Shown here one piece after another: positions 6,802-23,886 of a stretch of 32,000 bases of DNA. The notes beneath the pieces were generated by a model. That model saw only the letters and a list, made by a program, of their open reading frames with translations, did no database searches and was not told where the DNA came from. A program made the translations under genes and the position numbers. Position 1 is the first letter of the stretch. Each line of letters starts with the position of its first letter. This DNA is from Acaryochloris marina MBIC11017 (GTDB taxonomy: Bacteria; Cyanobacteriota; Cyanobacteriia; Thermosynechococcales; Thermosynechococcaceae): positions 300,001 through 332,000 of the forward strand of contig NC_009925.1 in the NCBI RefSeq assembly GCF_000018105.1, given 5' to 3'.

Positions 6802-7761
6802 TCAGTAGAGCTGGGGAACGAAAAACTGTTCGTTAAGAGGTGGACGGACATAATCTGTCGGAGCTTTCTTTCGGGGTGGCAACTCCATCGGTTCGGGTGT
6901 CATATCTTCGTAAGGAATCTTACTCAAGAAATGGCTAATGCAGTTGAGACGAGCCCGCTTTTTGTCATCCGCTTCCACCGTGAACCAAGGAGCCTCAGGA
7001 ATATTCGTATGGGCGAACATATTGTCTTTGGCCTGGGAATATTCAGCCCAGCGATCGCGGGACTCTAGATCCATGGGACTCAGCTTCCAGCGGCGGGCTG
7101 GATCCGTCGTCCGAGTCTGAAAGCGCCGCTCTTGCTCCTCATCACTGACGGAAAACCAATACTTCAGCAGAATGATGCCGGAGCGAACCAGCATCTGTTC
7201 AAATTCAGGGCAAGTCTGCAGGAATTCCTCATACTGGTCGTCGGTGCAAAACCCCATTACATGTTCAACGCCAGCTCGGTTGTACCAGCTGCGATCAAAA
7301 CAAACAATCTCTCCGGCTGCTGGTAGGTGAGCCACATAGCGCTGAAAATACCATTCTGTCTTTTCGCGATCGCTGGGGGTTCCCAAGGCAACCACCCGAC
7401 AACCGCGAGGATTGAGGGGTTCGGTAATTCGCTTAATGGTGCCGCCCTTACCCGCCGCATCTCGACCTTCAAACACAATGACGATGCGAGTCCCCGTATT
7501 TTTAACCCAGTACTGCATTTTGACCAGTTCAAGCTGGAGACGGGCCAGTTCTTTTTCATACTTCTTTTTGGACAGTTTGGAACTGCCCTCTGATTCCGAG
7601 ATATGGTGAAAGATTTTGCGCTCCGAGGAGAGTTGACGGCTTGCTTTCTGCTTTTTACTCAGTTTATTTTTCTTCTTTATTTTGGGTGGCTTATCCTGTT
7701 GGACCTCAGCCTTTTCAGGTGGGGAATTAGGGGAAGCATTTTGCTTCTTTTTTGATGACAT
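6802..7761 (-). CDS. ppk2: polyphosphate kinase 2 with a Lys-rich N-terminal extension
   Basis: PPK2 Walker-A context VIVFEGRDAAGKGGTIKRI, plus FDRSWYNR and the RW..SP.D block. Confidence 0.85.
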   Translation of the reverse strand: MSSKKKQNASPNSPPEKAEVQQDKPPKIKKKNKLSKKQKASRQLSSERKIFHHISESEGSSKLSKKKYEKELARLQLELVKMQYWVKNTGTRIVIVFEGRDAAGKGGTIKRITEPLNPRGCRVVALGTPSDREKTEWYFQRYVAHLPAAGEIVCFDRSWYNRAGVEHVMGFCTDDQYEEFLQTCPEFEQMLVRSGIILLKYWFSVSDEEQERRFQTRTTDPARRWKLSPMDLESRDRWAEYSQAKDNMFAHTNIPEAPWFTVEADDKKRARLNCISHFLSKIPYEDMTPEPMELPPRKKAPTDYVRPPLNEQFFVPQLY

Positions 7762-11482: not shown

Positions 11483-12472
11483 AGCCTGACGAACGCTGGC
11501 GAAAGGAGTGTTATGGCACTTAGAGACTATTTCAAACGGCAAGGTTTGGCCAAAGCCAGATTCACTAATACTATGGACTTCGACATGTAAGTGGGGAGCC
11601 GAACTCCAACCCGAATTGCCGCTGTAGCCAATGAGGTCCCCCGTTCTCACCCAATCATTCAACTTGATTGGGATTTTCTTTTTAAAGTTCTGCTGCAAAT
11701 GAATGTAGGCTGAACGGACTCCATTACTATGTTCTAGCCAAATAAAGTTAAACTTCTCCGCATTTCTACGTCTTCCCCCTTTATCGGGATATTTATCTCG
11801 CAAGCCAATCACTCGCCCACCCTGCATGGCATAAACGGGCATGCCAATGGGTACACCAAAGTCATAGGCATATTTCATCCGGCCTTGATGAGTATTGCCT
11901 CGGGTTCCTTGACTGAGAAACCCTTTGCCTTGAAGGGGGTGACAATAGCCTTTCATGGCTGTACTAGGCAGATCCGTCAGGGGATGAGTTCCTCGACGAT
12001 TATCAAACCACTGCTTAACCCCTAACCGATTGAGAAGAAGACTGGGCATGCTAGTGGGGGGATCTGGGAAAGCCCCTCCTTCTGGCATGGATGGAGCGGG
12101 TCGAACTGACAATAGGGAGCAACCCGAGCCTAAACCACAAGCCAACGACAAACTCACTAAGGTGGCCGTTTGCTTCAGCCCCTTAGAAATTGGATTTCGA
12201 ATCGATTGCTTTTGGTGGGTTTTTATAGGAAAATCGCACAAATTCTGTCTATTACTCAATAATTTATAGAAATATTGATAACAATCAGCTTGAAATCCAT
12301 TTTTCTCTTTCTTTATACGAAAAAAATGATTTTCTGGGGAAATATAATCTGGATAACTCTTATTTCTAAGCTTATTTGAGTGAAGAATAATAGAATTGAA
12401 TATTGAGGTTAAAGAGGAAAATTCTCTTACCCAGCAAGGAATCTTCTCAACAGGCATATTACTTGAACACAC
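11477..12472 (-). CDS. M23-family peptidoglycan metalloendopeptidase; start uncertain
   Basis: The C-terminal half has M23 hallmarks (H.G.D, GYSGNSGWSSAPHLHVEVH). There is a hydrophobic or lipobox-like segment, LVSLSLACG. The first about 90 codons are very AT-rich and may not be coding, but the only in-frame ATGs are at the 5' end. Confidence 0.7.
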   Translation of the reverse strand: MCSSNMPVEKIPCWVREFSSLTSIFNSIILHSNKLRNKSYPDYISPENHFFRIKKEKNGFQADCYQYFYKLLSNRQNLCDFPIKTHQKQSIRNPISKGLKQTATLVSLSLACGLGSGCSLLSVRPAPSMPEGGAFPDPPTSMPSLLLNRLGVKQWFDNRRGTHPLTDLPSTAMKGYCHPLQGKGFLSQGTRGNTHQGRMKYAYDFGVPIGMPVYAMQGGRVIGLRDKYPDKGGRRRNAEKFNFIWLEHSNGVRSAYIHLQQNFKKKIPIKLNDWVRTGDLIGYSGNSGWSSAPHLHVEVHSISESGFGQTLPFEIVSKCHNTPFASVRQAS

Positions 12473-13422
12473 TTTTTAGGCTGACCAACTCTAAAATTGA
12501 TCAAGATAATAATGTAGTAGCATTGAATACATTCACGCGAATAAAATTTATTCTTTAAATATTGATTGATTGTTTTTATATTAGGAAATGTTAATCATAT
12601 TTTATTGTTTATAGCCTTGATTCAGGATAGCTATTACACCTTTATAGGAATAAAATAGATTTTGATTTTATCGGTAATTCCTTATTTGATAAGAGGTTGC
12701 TGGTGATTTTGTCCCTGCTCGATCCCTAGAGATTTGGAAAGATTCTGAAACGCATTATCCAGTTTGAGAATCTCTCTCTTAGAATCAAAGTCTGGGATAA
12801 GCAAGAAGCTGTATGGCTTACAGAAAAGGAGGTACAGCCAAGTTCTCCTTGCTTTAGAATTTTTTTTGACAGAGAAAACCTGTTTTGTCCTGAAAGATGA
12901 GAACAGTTTAAAAATCATTAATGCTCTTAAACCCTGCGAAATATAAATTTCTAAATTTGCGATTTTGATTTCAGGGGATTTCGTCTCTAAATACTATAAG
13001 CAAGGAAAAAATATGTCTGGTCCAATTAGACTCTGAGTGATGGCCGAAGAAGAGACTGAATTAGAGGCGAATACCGAAAGTCTCGCTACTCTTTATACTG
13101 GGTCTACTTTTCGCCAAGGCGGTTCCTGAGCTGCCAAGCAGCTATTGTCCATTACCCGAAAGTGAGTATCAGTTGATATTGTGGCGTTCAAGAAATCTGA
13201 TCAGGGTGTGTAAGCCTAACCCTTGTCGTTTTGTGAGTGCGGGAAGACTGAACAGTTGGGAGATAGGGATTTGGCTAGCTGAATGCGCTTAGAAAAGGAT
13301 CTTGGGGCCTTTTCTCATCAGAGGTGCTTTTTTGCAGATGTGGGCTGCTTGATATTGCTTGGGGGAGAAACCCGTTAAAAATATATGCGACATTAGAGAA
13401 CAGTTGGAAGTTCTGCTAGGTA

Positions 13423-15324
13423 ATGGGTAAAAACTGGGCAATTGCCATTGGGATTAACGATTATCAAAATATGCGTCCGCTGAAATTTGCCCGAAAAGAC
13501 GCGGAGGCGGTGTGCCAGTTTTTTCAGGAGTCCTTGCATTTCGATAAGGTAGATTTGTTTGCCAAAGGGGCAGAGCCTGTCCGCTATGAAGATGGTCCTC
13601 CCATTCAAGCTGACCCTACTGTCGGCAATTTAGATACGTTTTTTGATGTCCGGTTTGAACACCCATTTCTAGAGCCAGGAGATAACCTGTGGTTTTTCTT
13701 TGCTGGGCATGGCAAACGCCACAAGGGGCGAGATTATTTGATGCCGATTGATGGCAGCCCCCGTCGTGTTGAAAGGATGGGTATTGCCATTGATTATATT
13801 GCTGAGCGACTGCGACGTAGTGGGGCGGATAATGTGATTTTGATGATTGACGCCTGCCGAGGCGAGGATGATCGGGATGGGGGTGAAGGGGTGGGTCGGC
13901 AACAGCAGAAAGGGATTATTACTCTGTTTGCCTGTAGCCCCAATGAGCTGTCCTATGAAATTGAGGAGATAGAGCAAGGGGCGTTTACCCATACGCTGCT
14001 TGCCGGACTCCAGATCCAGGGGGCGGGTAATTGCGCGACGGTGGAACGTTTGAGCCAATACCTGAGGGCGCAGGTGCCCGAGGTTAACCGTCGGTATAAT
14101 AAACCTGCTCAGACGCCATATACTCGGATAGAACCTGAATCGAAGCTGCATTTTATTTTGCTGCCGGGGCAAGCCACGCTGCAAGATGTAGCCACAATGA
14201 AAATTGATGCCCTGGTAGCTGAGACGGAAAATGATTTGGATGGGGCTGAGCATCTGTGGACTCGGGTGTTAGCAGCTTCTCAGGCAGACTTTCAAGCGAT
14301 TAAGGGATTACAGCGAATTGCGGTCAAACGGGCAACGGGCCAGTCCCTTAGATCGACACCGACTCCAAGTCCAGAGACGCTAACCACTGGGGCTGATAAC
14401 TCTTCCCGAGAACCTGCGAGTAATCTTCCGCCAGAATCGAAGGACAACCTGGCTGACAACAAACCGTCTAAACCTCAACCCTCAAGGGTGACGTTTTCGG
14501 TGGTCAAGGTGAATGCCCAAGGCGAGGTGATTGAGCAGCAAGAGCAACAGACAGAACAAAGCTTGGTAATGTTGCCGGGAGAAGTCCCCCTATCTCTGGT
14601 TCACATTCCCCAGGGGAAGTTTTGGATGGGTGCCCAGAAGAATGAAATAGATGCTCAAGATACTGAATACCCTAGGCATCAGGTATCGGTGCCCTCTTTT
14701 TGGATGGGGCAATATCCGGTAACACAACGACAGTGGCAAGCGATTGCGGGGCTGAGCAAAGTCAAGGTGGATCTGGATCCAGACTGTTCCAATTTCAAAG
14801 GAGAGGCTTTACCTGTGGAGAAGGTGTCTTGGTATCAGGCCGTTGAATTTTGTGAGCGCCTATCACGACATTCCGGCCAAGACTATCGGTTACCGACTGA
14901 GGCAGAGTGGGAATATGCCTGTCGAGCGGGTACCGAAACCCCTTTTTATTGTGGGGAAACTATTACAACAGATCAAGCCAATTACTGTGGTGATGCCACC
15001 TATGGGAACGGTCCAAAAGGGCAGTATAGATCGAAAACCATAGCCGTCGGTTCATCTGCTGCCAATGCCTTTGGCTTATTTGCCATGCATGGCAATGTCT
15101 GGGAATGGTGTCTGGATCATTGGCATGAGGATTATACAAACGCTCCTACCGATGGGACTGCTTGGTTAAGTGAAAATGATAATCATTATCGTCTGCTGCG
15201 GGGCGGTTCCTGGGGCAACTCTCCGAGGAGCTGCCGCTCGGCCTCGCGCCTCAGGCTCAGGCCCGACTCCCAGAACGACTGCGTCGGTTTCCGTGTCGTG
15301 TGTGTTTCGGCGAGGGCCTTCTAG
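13423..15324 (+). CDS. DGR target protein: N-terminal caspase-like (C14) protease domain plus C-terminal FGE-sulfatase/C-type-lectin-fold domain carrying the variable repeat
   Basis: Caspase His/Cys dyad contexts FFFAGHGKRH and LMIDACRGE. The FGE-type domain has IPQGKFWMGA, YPRHQV, EKVSWYQAVEFC, RLPTEAEWEYACRAG, GNVWEWC and LLRGGSW. The last 43 codons overlap the VR. Confidence 0.9.
   Translation: MGKNWAIAIGINDYQNMRPLKFARKDAEAVCQFFQESLHFDKVDLFAKGAEPVRYEDGPPIQADPTVGNLDTFFDVRFEHPFLEPGDNLWFFFAGHGKRHKGRDYLMPIDGSPRRVERMGIAIDYIAERLRRSGADNVILMIDACRGEDDRDGGEGVGRQQQKGIITLFACSPNELSYEIEEIEQGAFTHTLLAGLQIQGAGNCATVERLSQYLRAQVPEVNRRYNKPAQTPYTRIEPESKLHFILLPGQATLQDVATMKIDALVAETENDLDGAEHLWTRVLAASQADFQAIKGLQRIAVKRATGQSLRSTPTPSPETLTTGADNSSREPASNLPPESKDNLADNKPSKPQPSRVTFSVVKVNAQGEVIEQQEQQTEQSLVMLPGEVPLSLVHIPQGKFWMGAQKNEIDAQDTEYPRHQVSVPSFWMGQYPVTQRQWQAIAGLSKVKVDLDPDCSNFKGEALPVEKVSWYQAVEFCERLSRHSGQDYRLPTEAEWEYACRAGTETPFYCGETITTDQANYCGDATYGNGPKGQYRSKTIAVGSSAANAFGLFAMHGNVWEWCLDHWHEDYTNAPTDGTAWLSENDNHYRLLRGGSWGNSPRSCRSASRLRLRPDSQNDCVGFRVVCVSARAF
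15194..15314 (+). repeat. DGR variable repeat (VR)
   Basis: 121 bp aligning without gaps to 17886-18006. 104/121 positions are identical, and all 17 differences fall at template adenines. Confidence 0.9.
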
Positions 15325-15395
15325 CCCTTTACCCTCTTTCCCTTTTGCCCTTTGATCGAATTATTTTTTAAATTATCCTAATAAATAAAATCTTT

Positions 15396-15734
15396 ATGGA
15401 AGATCTACCCGTTATTCAAAAGACATACGATTGTATTCGCTGGTATGTACCGATTCTGAGTAAATTGCCTCGCCATCATCGCTATACCTTGGGAGATCGT
15501 ATGATTTCTAGCTTATATGACCTCCTGGAAGGATTGATTACAGCCCGATATTCCCGCAATAAGCTGCCCCTGCTAGAAACCCTCAATAGCAAGCTAGATA
15601 TTCTGCGGTATCAAACCCGTCTGATGCAAGACTTTGAACTGATATCCGGCCAGCGGTATGAAAATGCCAGCCTCTTCCTCCACGAGATTGGTTTAGACCT
15701 GGGGGGCTGGATTAAGCAACAGCGGAGGCGGTAG
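15396..15734 (+). CDS. avd: four-helix-bundle protein (23S rRNA intervening-sequence protein family), the DGR accessory variability determinant
   Basis: 112 aa with the typical family pattern (W...L.K.P+..+YTLGDR......L.E.LI.A). It ends 4 nt before the RT start and lies between the VR gene and the RT. Confidence 0.8.
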   Translation: MEDLPVIQKTYDCIRWYVPILSKLPRHHRYTLGDRMISSLYDLLEGLITARYSRNKLPLLETLNSKLDILRYQTRLMQDFELISGQRYENASLFLHEIGLDLGGWIKQQRRR

Positions 15735-15936
15735 CACTATGCGGCGGGTCGGCAACTTGTGGCCCCAAATCATTGCCTTTCAGAATTTGATTCAAGCGGC
15801 GCGGCAGGCTCAAAAAGGCAAGCGATATCGAGCCAATGTTCTGCAATTCAACCATCACCTAGAAACTGAACTGTTCACGATTCAGTCTGAACTAGCCACG
15901 CAAACCTACACCCCAGGCCCCTATCGAACCTTTGAA

Positions 15937-15945
15937 ATCTTTGAG
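15937..15945 (+). repeat. left copy of the 9-bp target-site duplication ATCTTTGAG
   Basis: Identical 9-mer at 17005-17013, directly abutting both IS inverted repeats. Confidence 0.9.
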
Positions 15946-17004
15946 GGCGTTGTTGCATGAATAGGTGCTGCGGATTAGGCGCGGGCTAGAGTTTATGTAC
16001 CACCAAAAACCGCTAGCCCATGAGTTACCAAATCCGCAACTGGTCCGAGTATAACGCTGGTCTCAAACAGCGGGGAAGTGTGACCTTCTGGCTCGAACAA
16101 TCAGCTATCGTTCATTGGCTAGAAACCACACCGAGACAAAAGCGGGGAGCCTCTCTGACCTATAGCGATACAGCAATCTCCACCTTCGAGACCGTCAAAT
16201 GTATCTATGGTTTAGCAGGGCGTCAAACCGAAGGATTTCTAAATTCATTGTTTGAGTTGATGGGAATTGAGCTTCCCGTTTGTGACCACAGCACCGTCTC
16301 TCGGCGGAAAGGTCAGCTATCGATTTCATTGCCCGTTATACCTAAGCAAGGTGCCATTCACGTCGTTATCGATAGCACAGGGGTCAAAGTCTATGGTGAA
16401 GGAGAGTGGAAAACCAGGCAACATGGTGTGAGCAAACGTCGGACGTGGCGTAAACTTCACTTGAGTGTTGATGAGTCCACTGGAGAAATTCTCACGGGTG
16501 TCGTGACAACCAATGACGTTCAGGATGGTGAAGTGTTTGAAGATCTCCTTGAAGGCATCGACGATGAGATTGAACAGGTCTCTGCTGACGGAGCCTATGA
16601 CCAAAGTCATTGCTATGATGCCCTCATGGAGCGCAATGCCACAGCTGCAATTCCCCCAAGGAAGAATGCCAAAATTTGGCAACATGGAAACTGCAATGCT
16701 CCACCCCATCCACGAGATCAAAATCTCAGAGCCATCCGAAAACAGGGACGAAAGAGGTGGAAAAAACAAGCCCACTATCATCGGCGGTCTCTAGCTGAAA
16801 CGACGATGTTTCGCTTCAAAACTATCTTTGGGGGTCAGGTACGTTCCCGTAACTTTGATAATCAAGCCACAGAGTTACTCCTGCAGTGTGCGGCACTCAA
16901 TCGAATGATTCAGATCGCCAAACCCGAGACTGTTTGGGTTGAAGCTTAAGAATAACGAGGAGAGGCAATTCATCTAGCCTTTACGCGATTCATGCAACAA
17001 AGCC
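15946..17004 (+). mobile_element. IS5-family, IS903-group insertion sequence (1059 bp)
   Basis: Terminal inverted repeats are GGCGTTGTTGCATGAAT (15946-15962) and the reverse complement of 16988-17004, GGCTTTGTTGCATGAAT (16/17 identical). They resemble the IS903 GGCTTTGTTG... ends. A 9-bp TSD and a single 309-aa DDE transposase ORF are present. Confidence 0.9.
16020..16949 (+). CDS. IS5/IS903-group DDE transposase
   Basis: The N-terminus (NWSEYNAGLKQRGS.TFW) and the DDE blocks (VIDSTG.KV.GEGEW, SADGAYD, RSLAET.MFRFK) are typical of IS903-like transposases. The ORF is intact. Confidence 0.85.
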   Translation: MSYQIRNWSEYNAGLKQRGSVTFWLEQSAIVHWLETTPRQKRGASLTYSDTAISTFETVKCIYGLAGRQTEGFLNSLFELMGIELPVCDHSTVSRRKGQLSISLPVIPKQGAIHVVIDSTGVKVYGEGEWKTRQHGVSKRRTWRKLHLSVDESTGEILTGVVTTNDVQDGEVFEDLLEGIDDEIEQVSADGAYDQSHCYDALMERNATAAIPPRKNAKIWQHGNCNAPPHPRDQNLRAIRKQGRKRWKKQAHYHRRSLAETTMFRFKTIFGGQVRSRNFDNQATELLLQCAALNRMIQIAKPETVWVEA

Positions 17005-17013
17005 ATCTTTGAG
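17005..17013 (+). repeat. right copy of the 9-bp target-site duplication ATCTTTGAG
   Basis: See 15937-15945. Confidence 0.9.
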
Positions 17014-17885
17014 CCTAAATTGCGGTTGATATCGGCGGCCCCCTATCGGGACCGAGTCGTTCACCATGCCCTTTGCAATGTTATTATTCCGGTGTTTGAA
17101 CCGACGCTTATTAGCGATTCCTATGCCAATCGGTGGGGATATGGCACCCATCGAGCCGTGCAGCGGTTTACGCAGTTTGCTCGCTCCAGCCGATATGTAT
17201 TGCAGTGCGATATTCGCAAATATTTCCCCTCCATTGATCATGGCCTGCTGAAGGCTGGCCTACGCCGCAAAATCAAGTGTCCAAAAACCCTCTGGCTGAT
17301 TGACCAAATCATCGATCACAGCAATCCCCAAGCAACAGTCCTTGAATATTTCCCCGGTGATGATTTACTCACTCCCCTTGCCCATCGCCGAGGGCTACCT
17401 ATTGGCAACCTAACCAGTCAGTTTTTTGCCAATGTCTATCTGAATGGGTTCGATCACTTTGTCAAAGAGCAGTTGAAAACCAAAAAATACGTCAGATATG
17501 TGGATGACTTTGCCCTGTTCGATGACAGCCGTGAACAGTTAGTTCAAGCTCGCCAAGCTATCGAAGCCTATTTAAACCAACTCCGACTCAAAATTCATCC
17601 GATCAAAAGCCAAATCGTCGCCACCCACCATGGCGTCGCTTTTTTGGGATTTCGGATTTTCCCCGCTCATATTCGCGTCCAGAATGCCAATATCCGCAGG
17701 AGCCGTAAAAGATTACGAAAACTACAAAAAGCCTATGCACAAGGTGAAATTAGTGCCACGATGATCGATCAATCGATTCAAAGTTGGGTTGCCCACCTTA
17801 GCCATGCTGATACTTGGCAACTGCGACAACGGATATTTGCTGACCTTGTGTTTGCAAGGCAGTAGAGATGGGCTAGACACAACCG

Positions 17886-18006
17886 TGCTGCGGGGCGGTT
17901 CCTGGAACAACAATCCGAGGAACTGCCGCTCGGCCACGCGCAACAGGAACAAACCCGACAACCAGAACAACAACGTCGGTTTCCGTGTCGTGTGTGTTTC
18001 GGCGAG
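17886..18006 (+). repeat. DGR template repeat (TR)
   Basis: Starts 20 nt after the RT stop. In the target frame it reads [41 protein letters not shown], with many AAC/AAT codons. It is the adenine-bearing partner of the VR. Confidence 0.9.
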
Positions 18007-18109
18007 TACTCTCCGTACCAGAACTGAGTGATGGGAATCCCTCGGGCGTGTGCTAGAAGAGTCCAGGTCTAGTCCAGAGATGCGGGTAACGGCATCCAAA
18101 AATCAAACC

Positions 18110-18155
18110 GGGCTGAATAGCTTCGTAAGCCATATGCTGAGCAGTTATTCAGCCC
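18110..18155 (+). other. long hairpin about 100 nt downstream of the TR (possible DGR-RNA structural element or transcript end)
   Basis: GGGCTGAATA (18110-18119) pairs with TATTCAGCCC (18146-18155), extendable by 3 more pairs. No U-tract follows. Confidence 0.3.
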
Positions 18156-18183
18156 AAGCCAGACAACTTATGTGGGGAATTTT

Positions 18184-18573
18184 ATGTCAGACACAATTGA
18201 ACTTTGGGTGGTAGCGGAAGCCGAATCTGAAGTGGACGTGGACACTGGAAATCGTGGTGATGGAAGTCGTGACGCTGAATTCACCGGACCAAGTTTTGGT
18301 GAAAAGGTAGATCGGGCAACTCAGAAATTGATTTCCCTAACTCGCAAACGAGTACCTGTGGATGTAGCCATGCTCAAAAAACAAATGAATGGCATGATGC
18401 AAGTGGTGGATGAGCTATTTATCCAATCAGAAATTCAAACCAAAATGCAGCTGGATGAAGTAGAGCTAAAAGTTGAAATTAACGCAGAAGGTCAACTTAG
18501 TCTCGTAGGGAATGGCGGTAAGCTGGGGAATACAGGCGGAATCACCTTGAAATTTAGCCGTCCTAAGTCCTAG
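18184..18573 (+). CDS. small acidic protein resembling the Trypco1 ('trypsin co-occurring domain 1', CU044_2847-like) family
   Basis: 129 aa. The C-terminal pattern LDEVELKVEINAEGQLSLVGNGGKLGNTGGITLKFSR resembles the family's conserved (V/I)E(V/F)G.K..AE.G......G.......(V/L)...W tail as I remember it. ATG at 18184. Assignment is from memory only. Confidence 0.4.
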   Translation: MSDTIELWVVAEAESEVDVDTGNRGDGSRDAEFTGPSFGEKVDRATQKLISLTRKRVPVDVAMLKKQMNGMMQVVDELFIQSEIQTKMQLDEVELKVEINAEGQLSLVGNGGKLGNTGGITLKFSRPKS

Positions 18574-18750
18574 ATACGACCTAACACTAACCAATGGCAA
18601 CCCCCTGGGCGATCACCATGAGGATTACCCCTACGACCATTTCCAGTTTGTCAAACTAGGTGCGAAGTTACTTTTTAGTTATCCTGCAATTTTTATCAGT
18701 AGTTTAGTCGGCGGGTACAATCCTGCCTAAAACAATCTTTGGGACACTCA

Positions 18751-18790
18751 AAAGAAAAGCGATGGCCTTCGTTTTATCAAAAGCCATCGC
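18751..18790 (-). terminator. Rho-independent terminator of the 18828..19685 gene
   Basis: The stem is GCGATGGC (18759-18766) pairing with GCCATCGC (18783-18790). On the minus strand TTTTCTTT (plus-strand 18751-18758) follows, 38 nt after the stop. Confidence 0.65.
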
Positions 18791-18827
18791 CATCAGTCAA
18801 CGCCAACACAACCTGGAGAACCTCAAC

Positions 18828-19685
18828 CTAACGCCACATCTCGCGCCAAGCCCCCACAACATTAAAACCATTGCCTACGGGCTTAATTTTCAAAGAACCA
18901 TAGTTGAAATGGTTACAGACGGGTCCAAAAACACTGCCACAAATATCACTCGCTCCCGCTCCTTTTAGGGATCGAGTCCCCAAATGACTATAGGTTGATT
19001 GCCCCCATTGACCATTTCCAAACCAAGTTGTGAAGTAACGCTTGGGGGCGTAACTTCCCTGTGGACCAACCTTTAAGACACATCGTAGTCCTCTACCTTG
19101 GCGACCTTTTGGCGGCGCAATTAAATCTGCAACCCGATATTGATCAAAAAACTTACCGCAGGTGCGCGCCCGACGTAAGGGTTGATATTGAGTCGTTCGC
19201 ACCTGTATCCATTCTTCATTCCAGGCTCCAGTTACTTGGATTCGACTGGGAGAGATCATCCTGACCCGTAGGTTGCCGGGAAAATTATTCTTAAAATGTT
19301 CGCCATTACCATAGATGTCCGACGCATAGCCCCGCATTAAGCGACGATTTCCAAACGCATGGCCAACGTGACGATAGGATTTTCCATTCCAATTCCCTTC
19401 GCCATACCAAGCAATTTTGGGAAGTCGTCGAGATCCACGTCTGACGGTAGAGACCTTCACACAACGGATTCCTCGACCTCTCTGCCGATTTAAAGACCGG
19501 ACCACAAAGGTTTTGAGATGGCGACCGCAGGAAAATTTCTGGGTTTTGAGGGGGCGCTGGCTAAAGGTGCGCTGGTGAAGGGTTTGCGCATTGATAGCGG
19601 GTGCCATAGAAAGGGCCAAAACCCCACCTAAAGCGAGCGACTTCAGTTGATTAATCTTTGCAGACATGACCTGACTCCTGTACAT
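18828..19685 (-). CDS. secreted, very basic protein built from two tandem copies of a domain of about 115 aa; function unknown
   Basis: Signal peptide (…LALSMAPAINA/QT). The internal duplication is visible in CGRH..RGRGIRCV..WYGEGNWNGKSYRHVGH..GYASDIYGNG..VTGAWNEEW versus CGKF..GRGLRCV..WFGNGQWGQSTYSHLGT..AGASDICGSV..VVGAWREMW. Confidence 0.6.
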   Translation of the reverse strand: MYRSQVMSAKINQLKSLALGGVLALSMAPAINAQTLHQRTFSQRPLKTQKFSCGRHLKTFVVRSLNRQRGRGIRCVKVSTVRRGSRRLPKIAWYGEGNWNGKSYRHVGHAFGNRRLMRGYASDIYGNGEHFKNNFPGNLRVRMISPSRIQVTGAWNEEWIQVRTTQYQPLRRARTCGKFFDQYRVADLIAPPKGRQGRGLRCVLKVGPQGSYAPKRYFTTWFGNGQWGQSTYSHLGTRSLKGAGASDICGSVFGPVCNHFNYGSLKIKPVGNGFNVVGAWREMWR

Positions 19686-19791
19686 AGTGAAAGGGAAAAG
19701 CTCCCTACACTCGTCTATAGGTTGGAGTCCGATTGATTATGCAGTGATTAAAGCAAAAGACTTCGTTTTCTTCAGATCCTAATAGGCCAAA

Positions 19792-20367
19792 TTAAATGGC
19801 TGGCAGAGGTTCTGGCTGTTCTTGACCCGCCCCAAATCCTATCGCCCCACTCGAATAAGTCGTACCAAAATTCTGAACGAGTTGATTAACCTGACTCAAG
19901 GCTGACCGAAAATCGCGATCTTGCAGCGAAGACAGGGGATGAAGAAAGGTAGCAAAGACAATGCCATTACTGACTGCATACCGACCATCCAAAGCGGTGT
20001 GGAAATTGGCAAGCAGCATATTATCCCGCTGTTCTGGGGTGATCTCCGCTGCCTTTTTGATGGGAGCCAGAATTCGCATCCGATCATGCTGCGCACTAGT
20101 CAGTATGAGCATGGTTCGCCCGTCATACTTAAAGCTAATCTGCCCTTGCTCAACTTGAACATCGGAGGCTTCATCCCGCAGAATCGTTTCCAGCTGCTCA
20201 ATGGTGGTCGATCCTGCTGTGGGACTTTCGGATTGAATGGCTTTGGGAAGGAGCTGAGCCTGAACTGCATTGAGCTTTGTCTGCGGCAGGAGTTCGGTCT
20301 GAGCCCTCGCCCAAGTCAAGGAGGCGATCGCTCCCACAAACAGAACTAATAGAGACATCCTTTTCAT
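19792..20367 (-). CDS. exported hypothetical protein
   Basis: ORF 19792..20406. The Met at 20367 starts a typical signal peptide, MKRMSLLVLFVGAIASLTWARA. No family confidently recognised. Confidence 0.5.
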   Translation of the reverse strand: MKRMSLLVLFVGAIASLTWARAQTELLPQTKLNAVQAQLLPKAIQSESPTAGSTTIEQLETILRDEASDVQVEQGQISFKYDGRTMLILTSAQHDRMRILAPIKKAAEITPEQRDNMLLANFHTALDGRYAVSNGIVFATFLHPLSSLQDRDFRSALSQVNQLVQNFGTTYSSGAIGFGAGQEQPEPLPAI

Positions 20368-20490
20368 GACAGCACCCTGACCAGCTAACTGCTTTAGCAT
20401 AAACATCTAAAGTGAGAATTCCCTGAATCCAGCCTCAACGCAACGGGTGGGGCTTAGTCTTTGGATCCTGAGTCGTAAGCTAGCGGTCTA

Positions 20491-20751
20491 TCACCCCCCA
20501 CTCACAGGGGGAATTAACACCACTTCATCGCCAGGTTGTAAAGGCGTATCCCCAGAGACAAAGTCCAAATTGACGCCAAAATGGGTCACAGACTGTAAGG
20601 ACGCCAGTTCGGGATATTGCTCCCAAAAATATTGACCGACGTGGGCCACGATTGAGCCATCTGGAAATTCGAGTTCTAACTCTGGGGAACCCACTACCTC
20701 CTGATAAGCGGCAAACAGCTTGACGGTTACTTTAATGTTGGGAGCAGACAT
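20491..20751 (-). CDS. moaD: MoaD/ThiS-family ubiquitin-like sulfur-carrier protein (C-terminal GG)
   Basis: 86 aa, MSAPNIKVTVKLFAAY...LQPGDEVVLIPPVSGG-stop, with the classic MoaD C-terminus. The ATG lies 2 nt after the cysH stop (TAAGAATG). Confidence 0.7.
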   Translation of the reverse strand: MSAPNIKVTVKLFAAYQEVVGSPELELEFPDGSIVAHVGQYFWEQYPELASLQSVTHFGVNLDFVSGDTPLQPGDEVVLIPPVSGG

Positions 20752-20753
20752 TC

Positions 20754-21482
20754 TTAAGCATGCATTCCGCATTCTGTACGGGCTTTTCCTCGCCAACGAC
20801 CGGCCCGCTCTTCTTCACCAGGCTTCGTCATGGTGGTTAAAGGCTCATCGCCGATACTGGCATAACCCTGATCATAAAGGGGGTTATACAACACCTGATT
20901 GTTGACCAGATAGTTCCACACATCTTTGTAAGACCAGTTGGCTAGGGGATTCACTTTTAAGCGCCCGTCTCGATCGCATTCAAAAATCGGCATCTTTGCT
21001 CGGGTAGAAGACTGATCTCGTCGCCTGCCCGTAATCCAGGTGGCGACCTGAAGCTGTTCGAGTCCTCGCCGCAACGGTTCAACTTTGGTTAGTTGATGAA
21101 ATTGTTCTAAATCCGTTTCCCAGAGCTGCTCACCATAGTGTTGAGCAAATTCAGCACGGGACGTCACACCTTGGGGGCGAAAAATTTGCAAATCTACCCC
21201 GTAATGGGCCTGAGCGTCGTTGGCCAGTTTTAGGGTTTCTGGAAAATGGTGCAGGGTATCCAAAAACAAGACCGGAATGGAAGGATTGGGATTGAGGTCT
21301 TTGTAAAGCAGGTCCATAATCACCATGCCACTCGCCCCAAATGCGGTGCTCTGGATCAGCCCCTCAGGTAGATTCTCTAAACACCACGTCAAAATACTTT
21401 TGGGATGAGCCTTATCCAACTGCTGATTCAGCTGATCAATATCAACTGTCTGCTGCTTGGGGGTCTCGATGCATGGATCCAT
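20754..21482 (-). CDS. cysH: phosphoadenosine-phosphosulfate (PAPS/APS) reductase
   Basis: 242 aa with the PP-loop-type N-terminal region and the diagnostic C-terminal ECG(M/L)H motif (KARTECGMHA-stop). Confidence 0.85.
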   Translation of the reverse strand: MDPCIETPKQQTVDIDQLNQQLDKAHPKSILTWCLENLPEGLIQSTAFGASGMVIMDLLYKDLNPNPSIPVLFLDTLHHFPETLKLANDAQAHYGVDLQIFRPQGVTSRAEFAQHYGEQLWETDLEQFHQLTKVEPLRRGLEQLQVATWITGRRRDQSSTRAKMPIFECDRDGRLKVNPLANWSYKDVWNYLVNNQVLYNPLYDQGYASIGDEPLTTMTKPGEEERAGRWRGKARTECGMHA

Positions 21483-22098
21483 AGTGCCAATGCCAACCTA
21501 TTTCAAATTCGGTACGAACATTCTAACTGCTTATTCCCCGAATCTCCACCGGATAACCGTAGTATAAAGTTCGGTCCCGTTGAGTTGGACACAGCTTAGG
21601 GGGTTGGCGAAGGCCAATGGTGTAACCAATTTGACAGTTTTCTTAGCCAGAGTATGGTCACACACTCTTCTCTATCAGCAAATGCCTGCAATGCTGCAGG
21701 CATTTGCTCCCTTCCCGCCATAAGATTATGGAACAAGTGAAAATATAAAATTCAGGCTGTTTTGAACTTGTTCAGCCGATAGAAACTGGTTAGCAGCAAA
21801 GAACTCATGGAGCTGTTGTTTGATCTGTGTCAGGGTCGTTCCAAGAGGGAGATGGTGCAGACATCGTAAGCGTAGTAAGTGAATCACATATTCAACCAAG
21901 TTCAACTTGGGAGAGTAGGACGGCAAATATAAAAACTCAACTTGAATCGATTGGGTGAGCCCCATCTGCTCTAGATGGATAGCGAGTTGGGAGCGCATCT
22001 TGCCCTTATGGGTCGGATTGTTATCGAGAATAAGGCACAGTTGAGTGTAGCCCAGCTCAACGCTATCCAGACATAGGTCTGCAAAGTACTCAGAGATA

Positions 22099-23052
22099 TA
22101 GCAGTCGCCATATTGAGAAGGACTTAAACTAGAGAAGTATTTTATTCCTTCTCCTGTGTGATGCCCAAAATTTATAGTTACGACCTACGTTGCAAAGTGA
22201 TAGATGCGATTGAGCTAGATGGGATGCGCCCTTCTGAGGCTAGTGAGCTGTTCGATATCAGTCGTAACACCATTAACCAATGGCAACACCTCAAGGCGGA
22301 AACGGGTGATTTGCATCCCAAGCCAGTCCATCATCCTGGCCATAGCCATAAAATCACTGACTGGGACAAGTTTCGAGCGTTTGCCCACAAGCATCGTCAT
22401 AAAACCCAAGCTCAGATGGCTCAACTATGGGATGGAGAGATTAGTGATCGAACCATCTCAAGAGCCCTCCAGAAAATCGGATTTACTCGAAAAAAAAACA
22501 TATGGGTACCGAGAACGAGATAAGCACAAACGGGCAGCGTTCATCAAACGTCTGAGTACCGTGGACCCAGACGATATCGTCTATGCGGATGAGTCGGGCA
22601 TGGATCATCGAGACGAGTATGACTATGCTTATGGCCCCAAAGGTGAGCGGGTTTATGCTTTGAAGACTGGGCGTAGAAGCGGCCGAGTCAATATGATTGC
22701 GGCGTTGAGAGCAAAGCAGTTGATGGCACCGTTCACGATCGAAGGAGCTTGCAATCGGACTGTGTTTGAACTTTGGCTAGAGCGTTGCTTGATACCCGTG
22801 CTCAAGCCTGGGCAGAAGCTGGTGATAGATAATGCCACTTTTCACAAGGGAGGACAAATACAGGAATTAGTGGAAAAAGCAGGATGTGAGGTTTGGTATT
22901 TACCGCCTTATTCCCCTGACTTGAACAAGATTGAGCGGTCTTGGTCTTGGATTAAAAGTCGCATCCGTCACCAATTAGAACATTTTGGATCTCTCAGAGA
23001 AGCAATGGAACATGTTCTACATCTAGTGTCCTGAATAGAATGGCGACTGCTA
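22099..23052 (+). mobile_element. inner IS630-family element (954 bp, ISY100-like size) nested in the outer IS630 transposase gene
   Basis: The terminal inverted repeats are TAGCAGTCGCCAT (22099-22111) and ATGGCGACTGCTA (23040-23052). The TA duplication (22097-22098 and 23053-54) is typical of the IS630/Tc1-mariner family. Confidence 0.85.
22161..23034 (+). CDS. IS630-family transposase of the inner element; two frames joined at an A9 run (22500-22508)
   Basis: Frame 1 reads MPKIYSYDLR...IGFTRKK. Frame 2 continues with TYGYRERDKHKR...VYADESG...VIDNATFHKG...LPPYSPDLNKIE. Loss of one A, or slippage, gives a single ORF of about 289 aa. Confidence 0.75.
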
Positions 23053-23886
23053 TATCTTCTGTTTTAGCCTGTGGGCTCAGAGCGAAATACTCTTCGCCAC
23101 TGTGGGCATCGACGCACAGTAACCCATTGAGCTTGTTGCGAGCCCGCTCATTACTCTTGACCTGTGGACGAGTGTTGCGTTCTGCCCAGCCATAGAACAA
23201 CCTAGGACGCTCAGACACCGCAAATTCGTCAAAGAACAAGATGCGCTCATCCGATTGTCGTGATTGCAGTTTTTTTAACAGCCGCCACCCACTCTTTCTG
23301 GGCGTTCAGGTCAGCATTCGCATAGTCACGATGGGCGCGTTGGTAAGATAACCCCAACTCTGATAGCAATTCGTAGATACGCGAATCTTTCAGCTGCACC
23401 TCGAAACGCTGCTCAATCACAACGGCTAAAATTGCACCTGTCCACATATTGCGGTCAATACCATAGTCTGTCGGACGTTGCGTCAGAACCATCTCTTTGA
23501 GTTGTTGTTGTTCCTCTGGGCTCAACCGACTAGGTTTTTGATGTCGAATGGATTGGACCAAGCCCTGGAGTCCACCATCGAGATATTTGTCCATCCAACG
23601 CGTTAACGTATCATAGCTACACCCCACTTGTTCGCTCACTTGGGTACGACTGTGTCCTTCATTCAGCAATTTGATCGCGGTCAAGCGCTGTCGAATGTAG
23701 TGTTGTTGATTGCGGTAGTAGAATTTCTGCCACTCATCCGCATCAAAAGGCTTGTCCAGAAAGGCTTGTGTTCGATTCAATGTGACTATTTGCTCTTTTC
23801 CCCATTTTACAGCGGGAAGGGAGTAATCCTAACGGACTTGTCCCGATGCCCCTCAAAGCATCTCTGTTTTCTACAGAGTAGGCCCG

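Follow-up and report, generated by a model that had tools for sequence, protein, structure and literature searches.

A chromosomal diversity-generating retroelement of Acaryochloris marina MBIC11017 with a reverse transcriptase gene split by ISAcma6

The DNA considered here, called the window below, is a stretch of 32,000 nucleotides from the chromosome of Acaryochloris marina MBIC11017 (NC_009925.1, positions 300,001 to 332,000, forward strand). It contains a genuine chromosomal diversity-generating retroelement (DGR) of this species in the order target-avd-RT-TR, where RT is the reverse transcriptase gene and TR the template repeat. The RT gene is split by a copy of the insertion sequence (IS) ISAcma6. 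We consider it highly probable that the element diversified the sensor of an orthocaspase that has a Pepco protein as its effector, that the RT gene was split by a recent ISAcma6 insertion, and that the variable repeat (VR) of the target has been frozen since.

A DGR of A. marina MBIC11017 with an RT open reading frame (ORF) disrupted by an insertion element, and with TR/VR differences at adenines only, was cited in 2012 by Schillinger et al. (DiGReF, BMC Genomics 13:430, Fig. 4B). The paper devotes a single figure panel to it, to illustrate an inactivated DGR, and the authors reasoned that such inactivations must be recent, since the VR/TR pairs carry only A-mutations. That example is very probably the locus described here. 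The existence of an IS-disrupted DGR in this strain has therefore been known since 2012, and the main finding adds no new biology. Added to the published panel are the identity of ISAcma6 and its position in codons 67-69, the empty site in the sibling strain MBIC10699, the divergence of the two strains in VR only, the RNA elements around TR, and the link to Pepco.

The repeat pair and the cassette

The genes and repeats of the element, and the insertion within it, are as follows (window coordinates; E-values from Pfam where given).

13423..15324, + strand: DGR target gene, 633 amino acids (aa); Peptidase_C14 1.8e-21, FGE-sulfatase 3.2e-54
15194..15314, + strand: VR, target codons 591-631; repeat to TR with A-only mismatches
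15396..15734, + strand: avd, accessory protein of 112 aa; bAvd 4.6e-20, NCBIfam DivGenRetAVD
15739..15945, + strand: RT fragment 1, codons 1-69; by alignment to 8ub7 it comprises the N-terminal extension, in which K28 lies, and, with F65, the first half of the fingertips loop
15937..15945, no strand: left copy of the target-site duplication, ATCTTTGAG, RT codons I67-F68-E69
15946..17004, + strand: ISAcma6, 1059 bp, IS5 family, IS903-like; inverted repeats, identical copies elsewhere
16020..16949, + strand: ISAcma6 transposase, 309 aa, DDE type; DDE_Tnp_1_5 6.8e-45, DDE_Tnp_1 1.9e-32
17005..17013, no strand: right copy of the target-site duplication, ATCTTTGAG
17014..17865, + strand: RT fragment 2, codons 70-352 and stop; RVT_1 6.7e-24
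17886..18006, + strand: TR; repeat to VR, identical in the sibling strain MBIC10699

The TR/VR pair is the sole long repeat that a repeat finder detected in the window. A base-by-base comparison of TR with VR gives 104 identities over 121 ungapped nucleotides (86 %), and the homology ends sharply at both edges. All 17 mismatches fall on adenines of TR, which are replaced in VR by G, T or C, and there are no differences at template C, G or T positions. Adenines account for 29 of the 121 bases of TR and 17 of these 29 are changed in VR (hypergeometric P = 2.3e-13), so that the TR/VR differences have the adenine restriction by which DGRs are recognized. Ten VR codons are rewritten relative to TR. 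The TR adenines lie mostly at codon positions 1 (15) and 2 (13), with one at position 3, and 28 of the 29 are within the mutable zone. TR includes ten AAY codons, which is the classic DGR design, and has a coding capacity of about 7e16 DNA variants or 6.6e15 protein variants. Beyond the last mismatch, the two repeats share an invariant 3' tail of 33 nt (17974-18006), which the initial annotation put forward as a possible IMH (initiation of mutagenic homing) site. Because VR and TR are identical over these last 33 nt, no difference of the IMH/IMH* kind that is known from BPP-1 was found.

VR occupies codons 591-631 of the 633 in the target gene, at the 3' end of a domain with the C-type-lectin (CLec)/FGE fold, as in DGR targets. 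The target protein begins with a caspase-like Peptidase_C14 domain (aa 4-232), continues with a linker and ends with the FGE-sulfatase/CLec-fold domain (aa 392-626). The caspase dyad was located by its motifs and is intact, with His96 in AGHG and Cys145 in DACRG. Matches to the target in the PDB include PvdO (1.5e-32) and TvpA, a DGR target of Treponema (2y3c, 2.2e-24). The Avd protein scores 135 bits against the DivGenRetAVD equivalog model (cut-off 80), which identifies it as the DGR accessory protein, and it is identical in MBIC10699.

The RT carries IGNLTSQ, an instance of the DGR-specific IGxxxSQ motif, at residues 199-205. Its best PDB match is 8ub7_A, a 328-aa chain labelled 'Reverse transcriptase' (E = 1.6e-53), compared with 4.7e-26 for the best group II intron RT and about 1e-15 to 3e-15 for retron RTs. 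This chain is the bRT of the Bordetella phage, because its numbering fits the reported bRT residues K29, F66, I76, D138 and D215/216, and the alignment to 8ub7 finds these functional residues conserved in the RT of the window. In bRT, the N-terminal extension contacts Avd, and the RT-Avd complex makes many specific contacts with its own RNA (bioRxiv 10.1101/2023.10.23.563531). Identity as a group II intron RT or a retron RT was rejected, the curated family scores being missed by wide margins: 149 bits against the TIGR04416 group II intron model (cut-off 300) and 57 bits against the retron St85 model (cut-off 235). Neither group II intron RNA nor retron msr/msd RNA was found in the window with Rfam. 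Since the whole-window Rfam scan at gathering thresholds and a tRNA scan both returned zero matches, known RNA families, intron RNA and tRNA integration sites are absent from the window. The motif, the PDB scores and 80 colinear homologues flanked by TR/VR pairs place the RT in the DGR clade.

Most of the initial annotation of this DNA, made from the letters and their ORFs, stands. Its hand alignment of TR with VR (104/121, with 17 A-only mismatches at listed TR positions) was reproduced exactly, and the computational alignment found no mismatch at a non-A template position, an outcome that favours a DGR. The order target-avd-RT-TR, the Avd gene between the repeats (15396-15734), the IGxxxSQ motif and the CLec/FGE fold of the target were all borne out, and the target was found to carry a caspase domain in addition. 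The kinship of the RT, DGR as opposed to retron or group II intron, is decided in favour of DGR by similarity scores, not by a tree. Two counts need correction. Eleven changed codons had been claimed, although ten were listed and ten are present; and the invariant tail, given as 34 bp and written out as a string of 32 nt, measures 33 nt.

The ISAcma6 insertion and the sibling strain

In the ORF table, the RT region consists of frames of 73 aa (15739-15960), 309 aa (16020-16949) and 281 aa (17020-17865). Removal of ISAcma6 together with one copy of the 9-mer restores a single in-frame RT of 352 aa that includes IGNLTSQ and YVDD. The reconstructed protein aligns over residues 1-352, straight through the junction, with uninterrupted homologues from 80 cyanobacterial loci at 65-72 % identity. 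As it stands, the gene is split after codon 69, the inserted 1059 bp carry stop codons in the RT frame, and the intact RT gene that belongs to a DGR is not present in the window.

The insertion has the hallmarks of an IS5-family element: a DDE transposase, terminal inverted repeats, a 9-bp duplication and an empty site elsewhere. The inverted repeats, GGCGTTGTTGCATGAAT and GGCTTTGTTGCATGAAT, match at 16 of 17 positions, and the direct duplication on the two sides, ATCTTTGAG, is perfect. The transposase scores 330 bits against the NCBIfam IS5-family model transpos_IS5_2 (cut-off 140). The name ISAcma6 comes from RefSeq, where it is attached to an identical copy. Like IS903 and IS903B, the element is about 1.06 kb long, encodes a single DDE transposase (~307 aa in the former) with a DDE_Tnp_1_5 N-terminal domain, and makes a 9-bp duplication; however, it is a distinct element resident in Acaryochloris, with a transposase only 43 % identical to that of IS903B over the full length. 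The terminal repeats of IS903 begin GGCTTTGTTG. Identical 1059-bp copies (100 %) are present at other chromosomal and plasmid sites of MBIC10699 with different 9-bp duplications, and ISAcma6 is therefore an active, multi-copy element.

Because ISAcma6 entered at codons 67-69, the N-terminal extension, K28 and F65 are left in fragment 1, and fragment 2 holds I75, the catalytic D135 and D233/D234 (YVDD), and IGNLTSQ. RT function has very likely been lost through the insertion. Judged from the sequence, the element in its present form would be unable to make its own RT, and the VR allele would be frozen because ISAcma6 splits the RT gene. The description of the cassette as 'complete' in the initial annotation thus did not hold, since the RT frame is split after codon 69 by the 1059-bp element inside the very interval so described.

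The history of the insertion can be read from a sibling strain. An exact look-up of the Avd protein found the corresponding locus (L088) in A. marina MBIC10699 (AP026075.1; species from PMC9324425), and a second empty site is on a contig of 1.65 kb (L089). MBIC10699 has an average nucleotide identity (ANI) of 98.0 % to the type strain MBIC11017 (PMC9324425). It encodes an intact RT of 352 aa, and at both loci the sequences that border the IS in the window are joined directly, with ATCTTTGAG present once, as expected of an empty site. Both RT halves of the window are base-identical to the intact gene.

The left flank of the window is about 96-97 % identical to L088, and the region from about 11856 to 23795 shows 2 differences from MBIC10699 in 10.6 kb outside VR. 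Within the 121 bp of VR, the two strains differ at 14 positions, a 600-fold excess over the surroundings. All 14 differences are at A-templated positions (P = 1e-10), the TRs are identical, and neither VR has a non-A difference from the chromosomal TR. Because the VR differences are all A-templated and the TRs are the same, the DGR appears to have been active after this block of about 12 kb last shared an ancestor, that is, recently. The initial annotation had proposed such a comparison of VR among sibling strains, and variation proved to be confined to the A-templated positions. The insertion is recent as well, because neither half of the RT gene differs by a single base from the intact version, the VRs are free of non-A changes, the IS copy is identical to other copies and its 9-bp duplication is perfect. 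Three independent read sets assemble to exactly the VR allele of the window, which is consistent with a frozen VR.

To the left and right of the near-identical block, the two strains diverge by 1.3-3.7 %, in line with the genome-wide ANI of 98 %. A recent recombination or transfer of the DGR segment between lineages from the same reef area is suggested. Two independent short-read contigs (L096 and L097, from SRR29694091 and SRR29694080) both end at 14930/14931, about 260 nt before VR, and three other short-read contigs continue to the end of VR. The break in L096 and L097 may reflect a repeat that also occurs in a paralogous FGE-domain gene at another place in this genome.

MBIC10699 carries a second DGR of the same clade, with avd, on its plasmid pREC1 (AP026076 55321-56759; surrounding region L100, AP026076.1 49375-62430), and its RT is 64.5 % identical to that of the window. 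The neighbours of the plasmid element are a MoxR ATPase, a serine protease and three FGE-family targets, and an IS200/IS605 tnpA/tnpB insertion parts avd-RT from the TR and 3' RNA, which lie inverted (L100 3750-3497, minus strand). The species thus has another DGR that was rearranged by a transposon. The plasmid TR is 80 % identical to the chromosomal TR. It was rejected as a donor of the chromosomal VRs, because both of these differ from the chromosomal TR at adenines only.

RNA elements around TR and the sequence that follows VR

The DGR RNA of the window contains the following elements, all on the + strand.

17869..17878: 5' arm of a 'cPRT Stop'-type duplex, TGGGCTAGAC; pairs with 18067-18076
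18007..18155: conserved, structured 3' part of the DGR RNA, which corresponds to 'Sp' of BPP-1; from the 35-locus alignment with covariation
18008-18013: template-side strand ACTCT-C; pairs with GAAGAGT at 18056-18062 as the putative template:primer duplex
18024-18045: 9-bp stem with a GGGA (GNRA) tetraloop at 18033-18036; of the Avd-binding type by analogy
18067-18076: 3' arm of the stop duplex; pairs with 17869-17878
18079-18096: short stem-loop
18097-18108: A-rich run
18110-18155: long terminal stem with interior loops; of the bRT-binding type by analogy

About 150 nt on the 3' side of TR are strongly conserved across the clade. The stop duplex, a perfect helix of 9-11 bp with compensatory changes, recurs with its position unchanged in 32 of 35 loci; it was found by a position-specific search across loci, RNAduplex on the whole region giving an uninformative global pairing. 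RNAalifold reported double changes in 12 of 18 pairs of the 35-locus alignment. In a 40-pair structure, 95.1 % of the cells are paired, a figure that drops to 32-46 % in controls with slid partners. Double compensatory changes are seen in 29 pairs, and none of 500 shuffles attains the observed values. The structured RNA that flanks TR in a DGR is thus represented by all of its elements, in the expected order and with support from covariation. The interior of the terminal stem (18125-18143, alignment columns 267-300) has a conserved GGUA…GAA that resembles, by eye only, a bulged-G (sarcin-ricin/loop E-like) motif.

The upstream/downstream cPRT Stop type of element has been described for BPP-1, whose authors also report that the RNA elements are conserved in DGRs of Cyanobacteriota (bioRxiv 10.1101/2023.10.23.563531). 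Because the elements match those of BPP-1 in content and order and have been reported from Cyanobacteriota, they represent known biology that is now located in this window; their roles, and the site of priming, are putative and assigned by analogy with BPP-1. The shared order consists of an Avd-binding stem-loop, a primer strand about 56 nt after TR, the stop duplex, a stem-loop with an A-run, and a long stem.

The BPP-1 element (mtd-avd-TR-brt), the prototype of DGRs, has other features in common with the locus: adenine-specific transfer, a VR at the C-terminus of a CLec-fold protein, and Avd; and its bRT is the closest solved relative of the RT of the window. In contrast to BPP-1, TR follows RT here (target-avd-RT-TR), the locus is chromosomal rather than phage-borne, and the target is a cytoplasmic-type caspase fusion rather than a tail fibre. 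The present element also differs in having no IMH/IMH* difference, a pyrimidine tract instead of a GC-rich hairpin after VR, and a disrupted RT.

The pyrimidine tract lies at the end of the target gene.

15317..15353, + strand: pyrimidine-repeat tract, CCTTCTAGCCCTTTACCCTCTTTCCCTTTTGCCCTTT, spanning the target stop codon

It is built of units such as GCCCTTT/CCCTCTT, and virtually all VR-bearing genes of the clade have such a tract beginning at their stop codon. In related loci, 36 avd-proximal VRs have the tract on their 3' side and so do 36 others, among them second, remote and inverted VRs; the pREC1 element has it too (L100 around 7110-7150, minus strand). TRs are not followed by it. Mean pyrimidine content after VRs reaches 0.78-0.79, compared with 0.49 in the background, and CCCTTT shows a 71-fold enrichment. 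In 2.4 Mb of related loci, about 60 of 71 strict tracts are at VR 3' ends, and the window has a single one. A GC-rich hairpin, the target signal in the BPP-1 model, was rejected for this clade, as the window offers no more than a weak stem of 5 bp (AGGGC/GCCCT) and no hairpin recurs consistently in related loci. The combination of an IMH/IMH* difference with a GC-rich hairpin, lacking here, defines the BPP-1 subtype and not DGRs generally.

The tract is a candidate for a target-site recognition element that replaces the GC-rich hairpin/cruciform of BPP-1, a proposal that is tentative and rather doubtful. Two mechanisms are possible: the tract could dock the purine-rich primer strand (GAAGAG) while this is still attached to the 5' end of the cDNA, or it could form a non-B DNA structure that marks the site of cDNA integration. 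No description of a VR-associated pyrimidine tract was found in the literature searched, and the tract seems not to have been described before.

The Pepco neighbour, alternative explanations and significance

The gene downstream of TR bears on the function of the target.

18184..18573, + strand: Pepco-domain gene, 129 aa from ATG; Pfam Pepco 1.7e-28; alternative GTG start at 18172

Homologues of this gene occur in 4 of 81 related loci, all four with a caspase-domain DGR target, and in 0 of the 76 non-caspase loci (P = 3e-6). There are five caspase-type loci; the fifth is too short to judge for Pepco, so that the proportion is 4/4. The position of the Pepco gene relative to the DGR varies, and it is always close to the caspase gene. 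Within the window, Pepco stands next to a protease with intact catalytic residues (His96 and Cys145), which is the arrangement of a Pepco module. Its C-terminal tail, GG[IM]T[LF]KFxR, is conserved, and the basic residues K123 and R126 would suit cleavage by an orthocaspase. Experiments have established Pepco as a pore-forming toxin that is activated by a protease, and its partner proteases can carry FGE sensors (PMC12642450). By analogy, the caspase-CLec protein and Pepco most likely form a defence pair of a sensor-protease and a pore effector, in which the sensor is tuned by the DGR.

The Pepco-protease modules of that study (bioRxiv 2025, PMC12642450) resemble the present pair in having a small Pepco protein beside a protease fused to an FGE-type sensor, the protease here being a cysteine protease. 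The characterised module differs in that its protease is the trypsin-like Avs4, which cleaves after isoleucine, whereas the window has a caspase homologue and a tail whose conserved residues are basic. The same paper mentions DGRs for the partners of EACC1, not for those of Pepco; here a DGR lies beside Pepco.

The locus belongs to the cyanobacterial or 'multicellular-bacteria' DGR clade (Kaur 2020 eLife; Vallota-Eastman 2020; Dore 2024 PNAS), with which it shares the layout and an RT 65-72 % identical. It also conforms to the published 'strict architectural syntax' of that clade, an N-terminal effector-type domain (here a caspase) with a C-terminal FGE/CLec domain. Unlike the conflict systems of the clade, it is a simple caspase-CLec plus Pepco arrangement with no MoxR-vWA ternary components at the locus, the host is unicellular, and a transposon lies within the RT gene. 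Transposons are frequent in and around these cyanobacterial DGR loci (Vallota-Eastman 2020, PMC7517822, among others). Earlier publications also cover DGR targets of the caspase-CLec type, the RNA elements, and transposons that are active near DGRs.

Many relatives (L001, L017, L026, L033, L035, L037, L039, L045, L053, L074-L077 and others) have a second VR about 1 kb downstream of TR, in a short CLec-only target, and some have a third VR upstream; the window has Pepco at the downstream position. Two ORFs past Pepco (18828-19685 and 19792-20406, minus strand; 285 and 204 aa) are conserved in MBIC10699 and had no Pfam or NCBIfam match. Further along, the ORF of an IS630-family (DDE_3) transposase (22158-23034) is split into overlapping frames, as it is in MBIC10699 (L088 15263-16571), which suggests a frameshift or a programmed frameshift.

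The proposed mechanism can be put together as follows. A transcript would cover the short stretch behind the RT stop codon, TR with its 121 nt, and some 150 nt of structured RNA on the 3' side. The RT-Avd complex would bind this RNA and self-prime from the GAAGAGT strand that is paired just 3' of TR, with the priming nucleotide predicted near 18061-18062, and the RT would then copy TR into cDNA, misincorporating opposite adenines. The cDNA would replace VR, the last ~40 residues of the CLec-fold sensor of the 633-aa orthocaspase. The orthocaspase is most likely the sensor-protease half of a two-gene module of the abortive-infection type, with the adjacent Pepco protein as the presumed effector, a pore former activated by C-terminal cleavage, and the DGR would tune what the caspase sensor recognises. 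In the sequenced strain, ISAcma6 has transposed into RT codons 67-69, duplicating 9 bp, and the engine is very likely broken.

Other explanations have been considered for each part of this scheme. The chance that TR and VR are an ordinary partial gene duplication, with TR a pseudogene of the target 3' end that has drifted by normal mutation and selection and with no retroelement involved, is close to nil. An 80-codon ORF (17789-18031) does span TR and translates into an FGE-like peptide, and the annotation of MBIC10699 has a 75-aa FGE-like ORF at TR. However, the adenine statistics rule out this origin: the 29 adenines of TR account for 17/17 mismatches (P = 2e-13) and for 14/14 differences between the strains (P = 1e-10). 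Moreover, TR is unchanged between strains while VR varies, the pair has avd, an RT of the DGR type and conserved RNA elements of a DGR as its neighbours, and the same layout is seen again in 60 of 81 related loci. That the DGR is complete and currently active, with a normally expressed RT that rewrites VR in cis, is very improbable, although TR, VR, avd, the RNA elements and both RT halves are intact and undecayed. A complete active cassette is refuted at the level of the sequence by the interruption after codon 69 and the stops in the RT frame. The longest downstream ORF is without the N-terminal extension, K28 and F65, parts that in bRT contact Avd and the template, and the gene without its interruption can be seen in the sibling strain. 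A DGR disabled in cis might still diversify if another RT-Avd in the same genome acted on its TR RNA, a situation that we regard as improbable. In its favour, a same-clade DGR with avd is present on pREC1 of the sibling (RT 64.5 % identical), pREC1 shares ancestry with pREB2 of MBIC11017 (PMC9324425), and the RNA elements around TRs are conserved clade-wide. But RT-Avd of BPP-1 depends on many specific contacts with its own RNA, for which 64.5 % identity is distant; the plasmid TR, 80 % identical, gave rise to neither chromosomal VR; and the three read sets have a single VR allele.

A different question is whether a real but disabled DGR served a regulatory or signalling orthocaspase, active in homeostasis or differentiation, with the adjacency of Pepco incidental. 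This is the least improbable of the alternatives, though still on the unlikely side. Vallota-Eastman et al. 2020 read cyanobacterial DGR targets, including orthocaspase fusions, as tuners of regulatory pathways (PMC7517822), and Acaryochloris is unicellular, whereas the literature on conflict systems stresses multicellular bacteria. Against this stand the occurrence of Pepco at 4 of 5 caspase-CLec loci and 0 of 76 others, always near the caspase gene, and the experimental demonstration that Pepco is a protease-activated pore former whose partners may carry FGE sensors (PMC12642450). Some facts weigh against the favoured view, that of a DGR-tuned orthocaspase-Pepco pair with an RT split by ISAcma6 and a frozen VR. 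A TTG could serve as the start of the 281-aa C-terminal ORF, which retains the catalytic motifs, and the inactivity of the RT is something that we infer. The VRs of the read sets come from consensus assemblies, which would hide minority variants, and a homologue of the pREC1 DGR in the strain of the window could supply RT-Avd in trans. The defence role draws on four loci and on analogy with a trypsin-type system of Streptomyces.

DGRs of this layout are common in cyanobacteria. The pyrimidine tract, if functional, bears on the least understood step of the DGR process, namely how the cDNA finds and replaces its target. The two strains amount to a natural experiment, since at 98 % ANI they share a near-identical block of 12 kb in which the RT is working in one and killed by an IS in the other. 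This pair could be used to measure rates of DGR turnover in a cyanobacterium, to ask whether a frozen sensor allele carries a fitness cost, and to probe the proposed link of DGR-diversified caspase sensors with Pepco pore-forming effectors.

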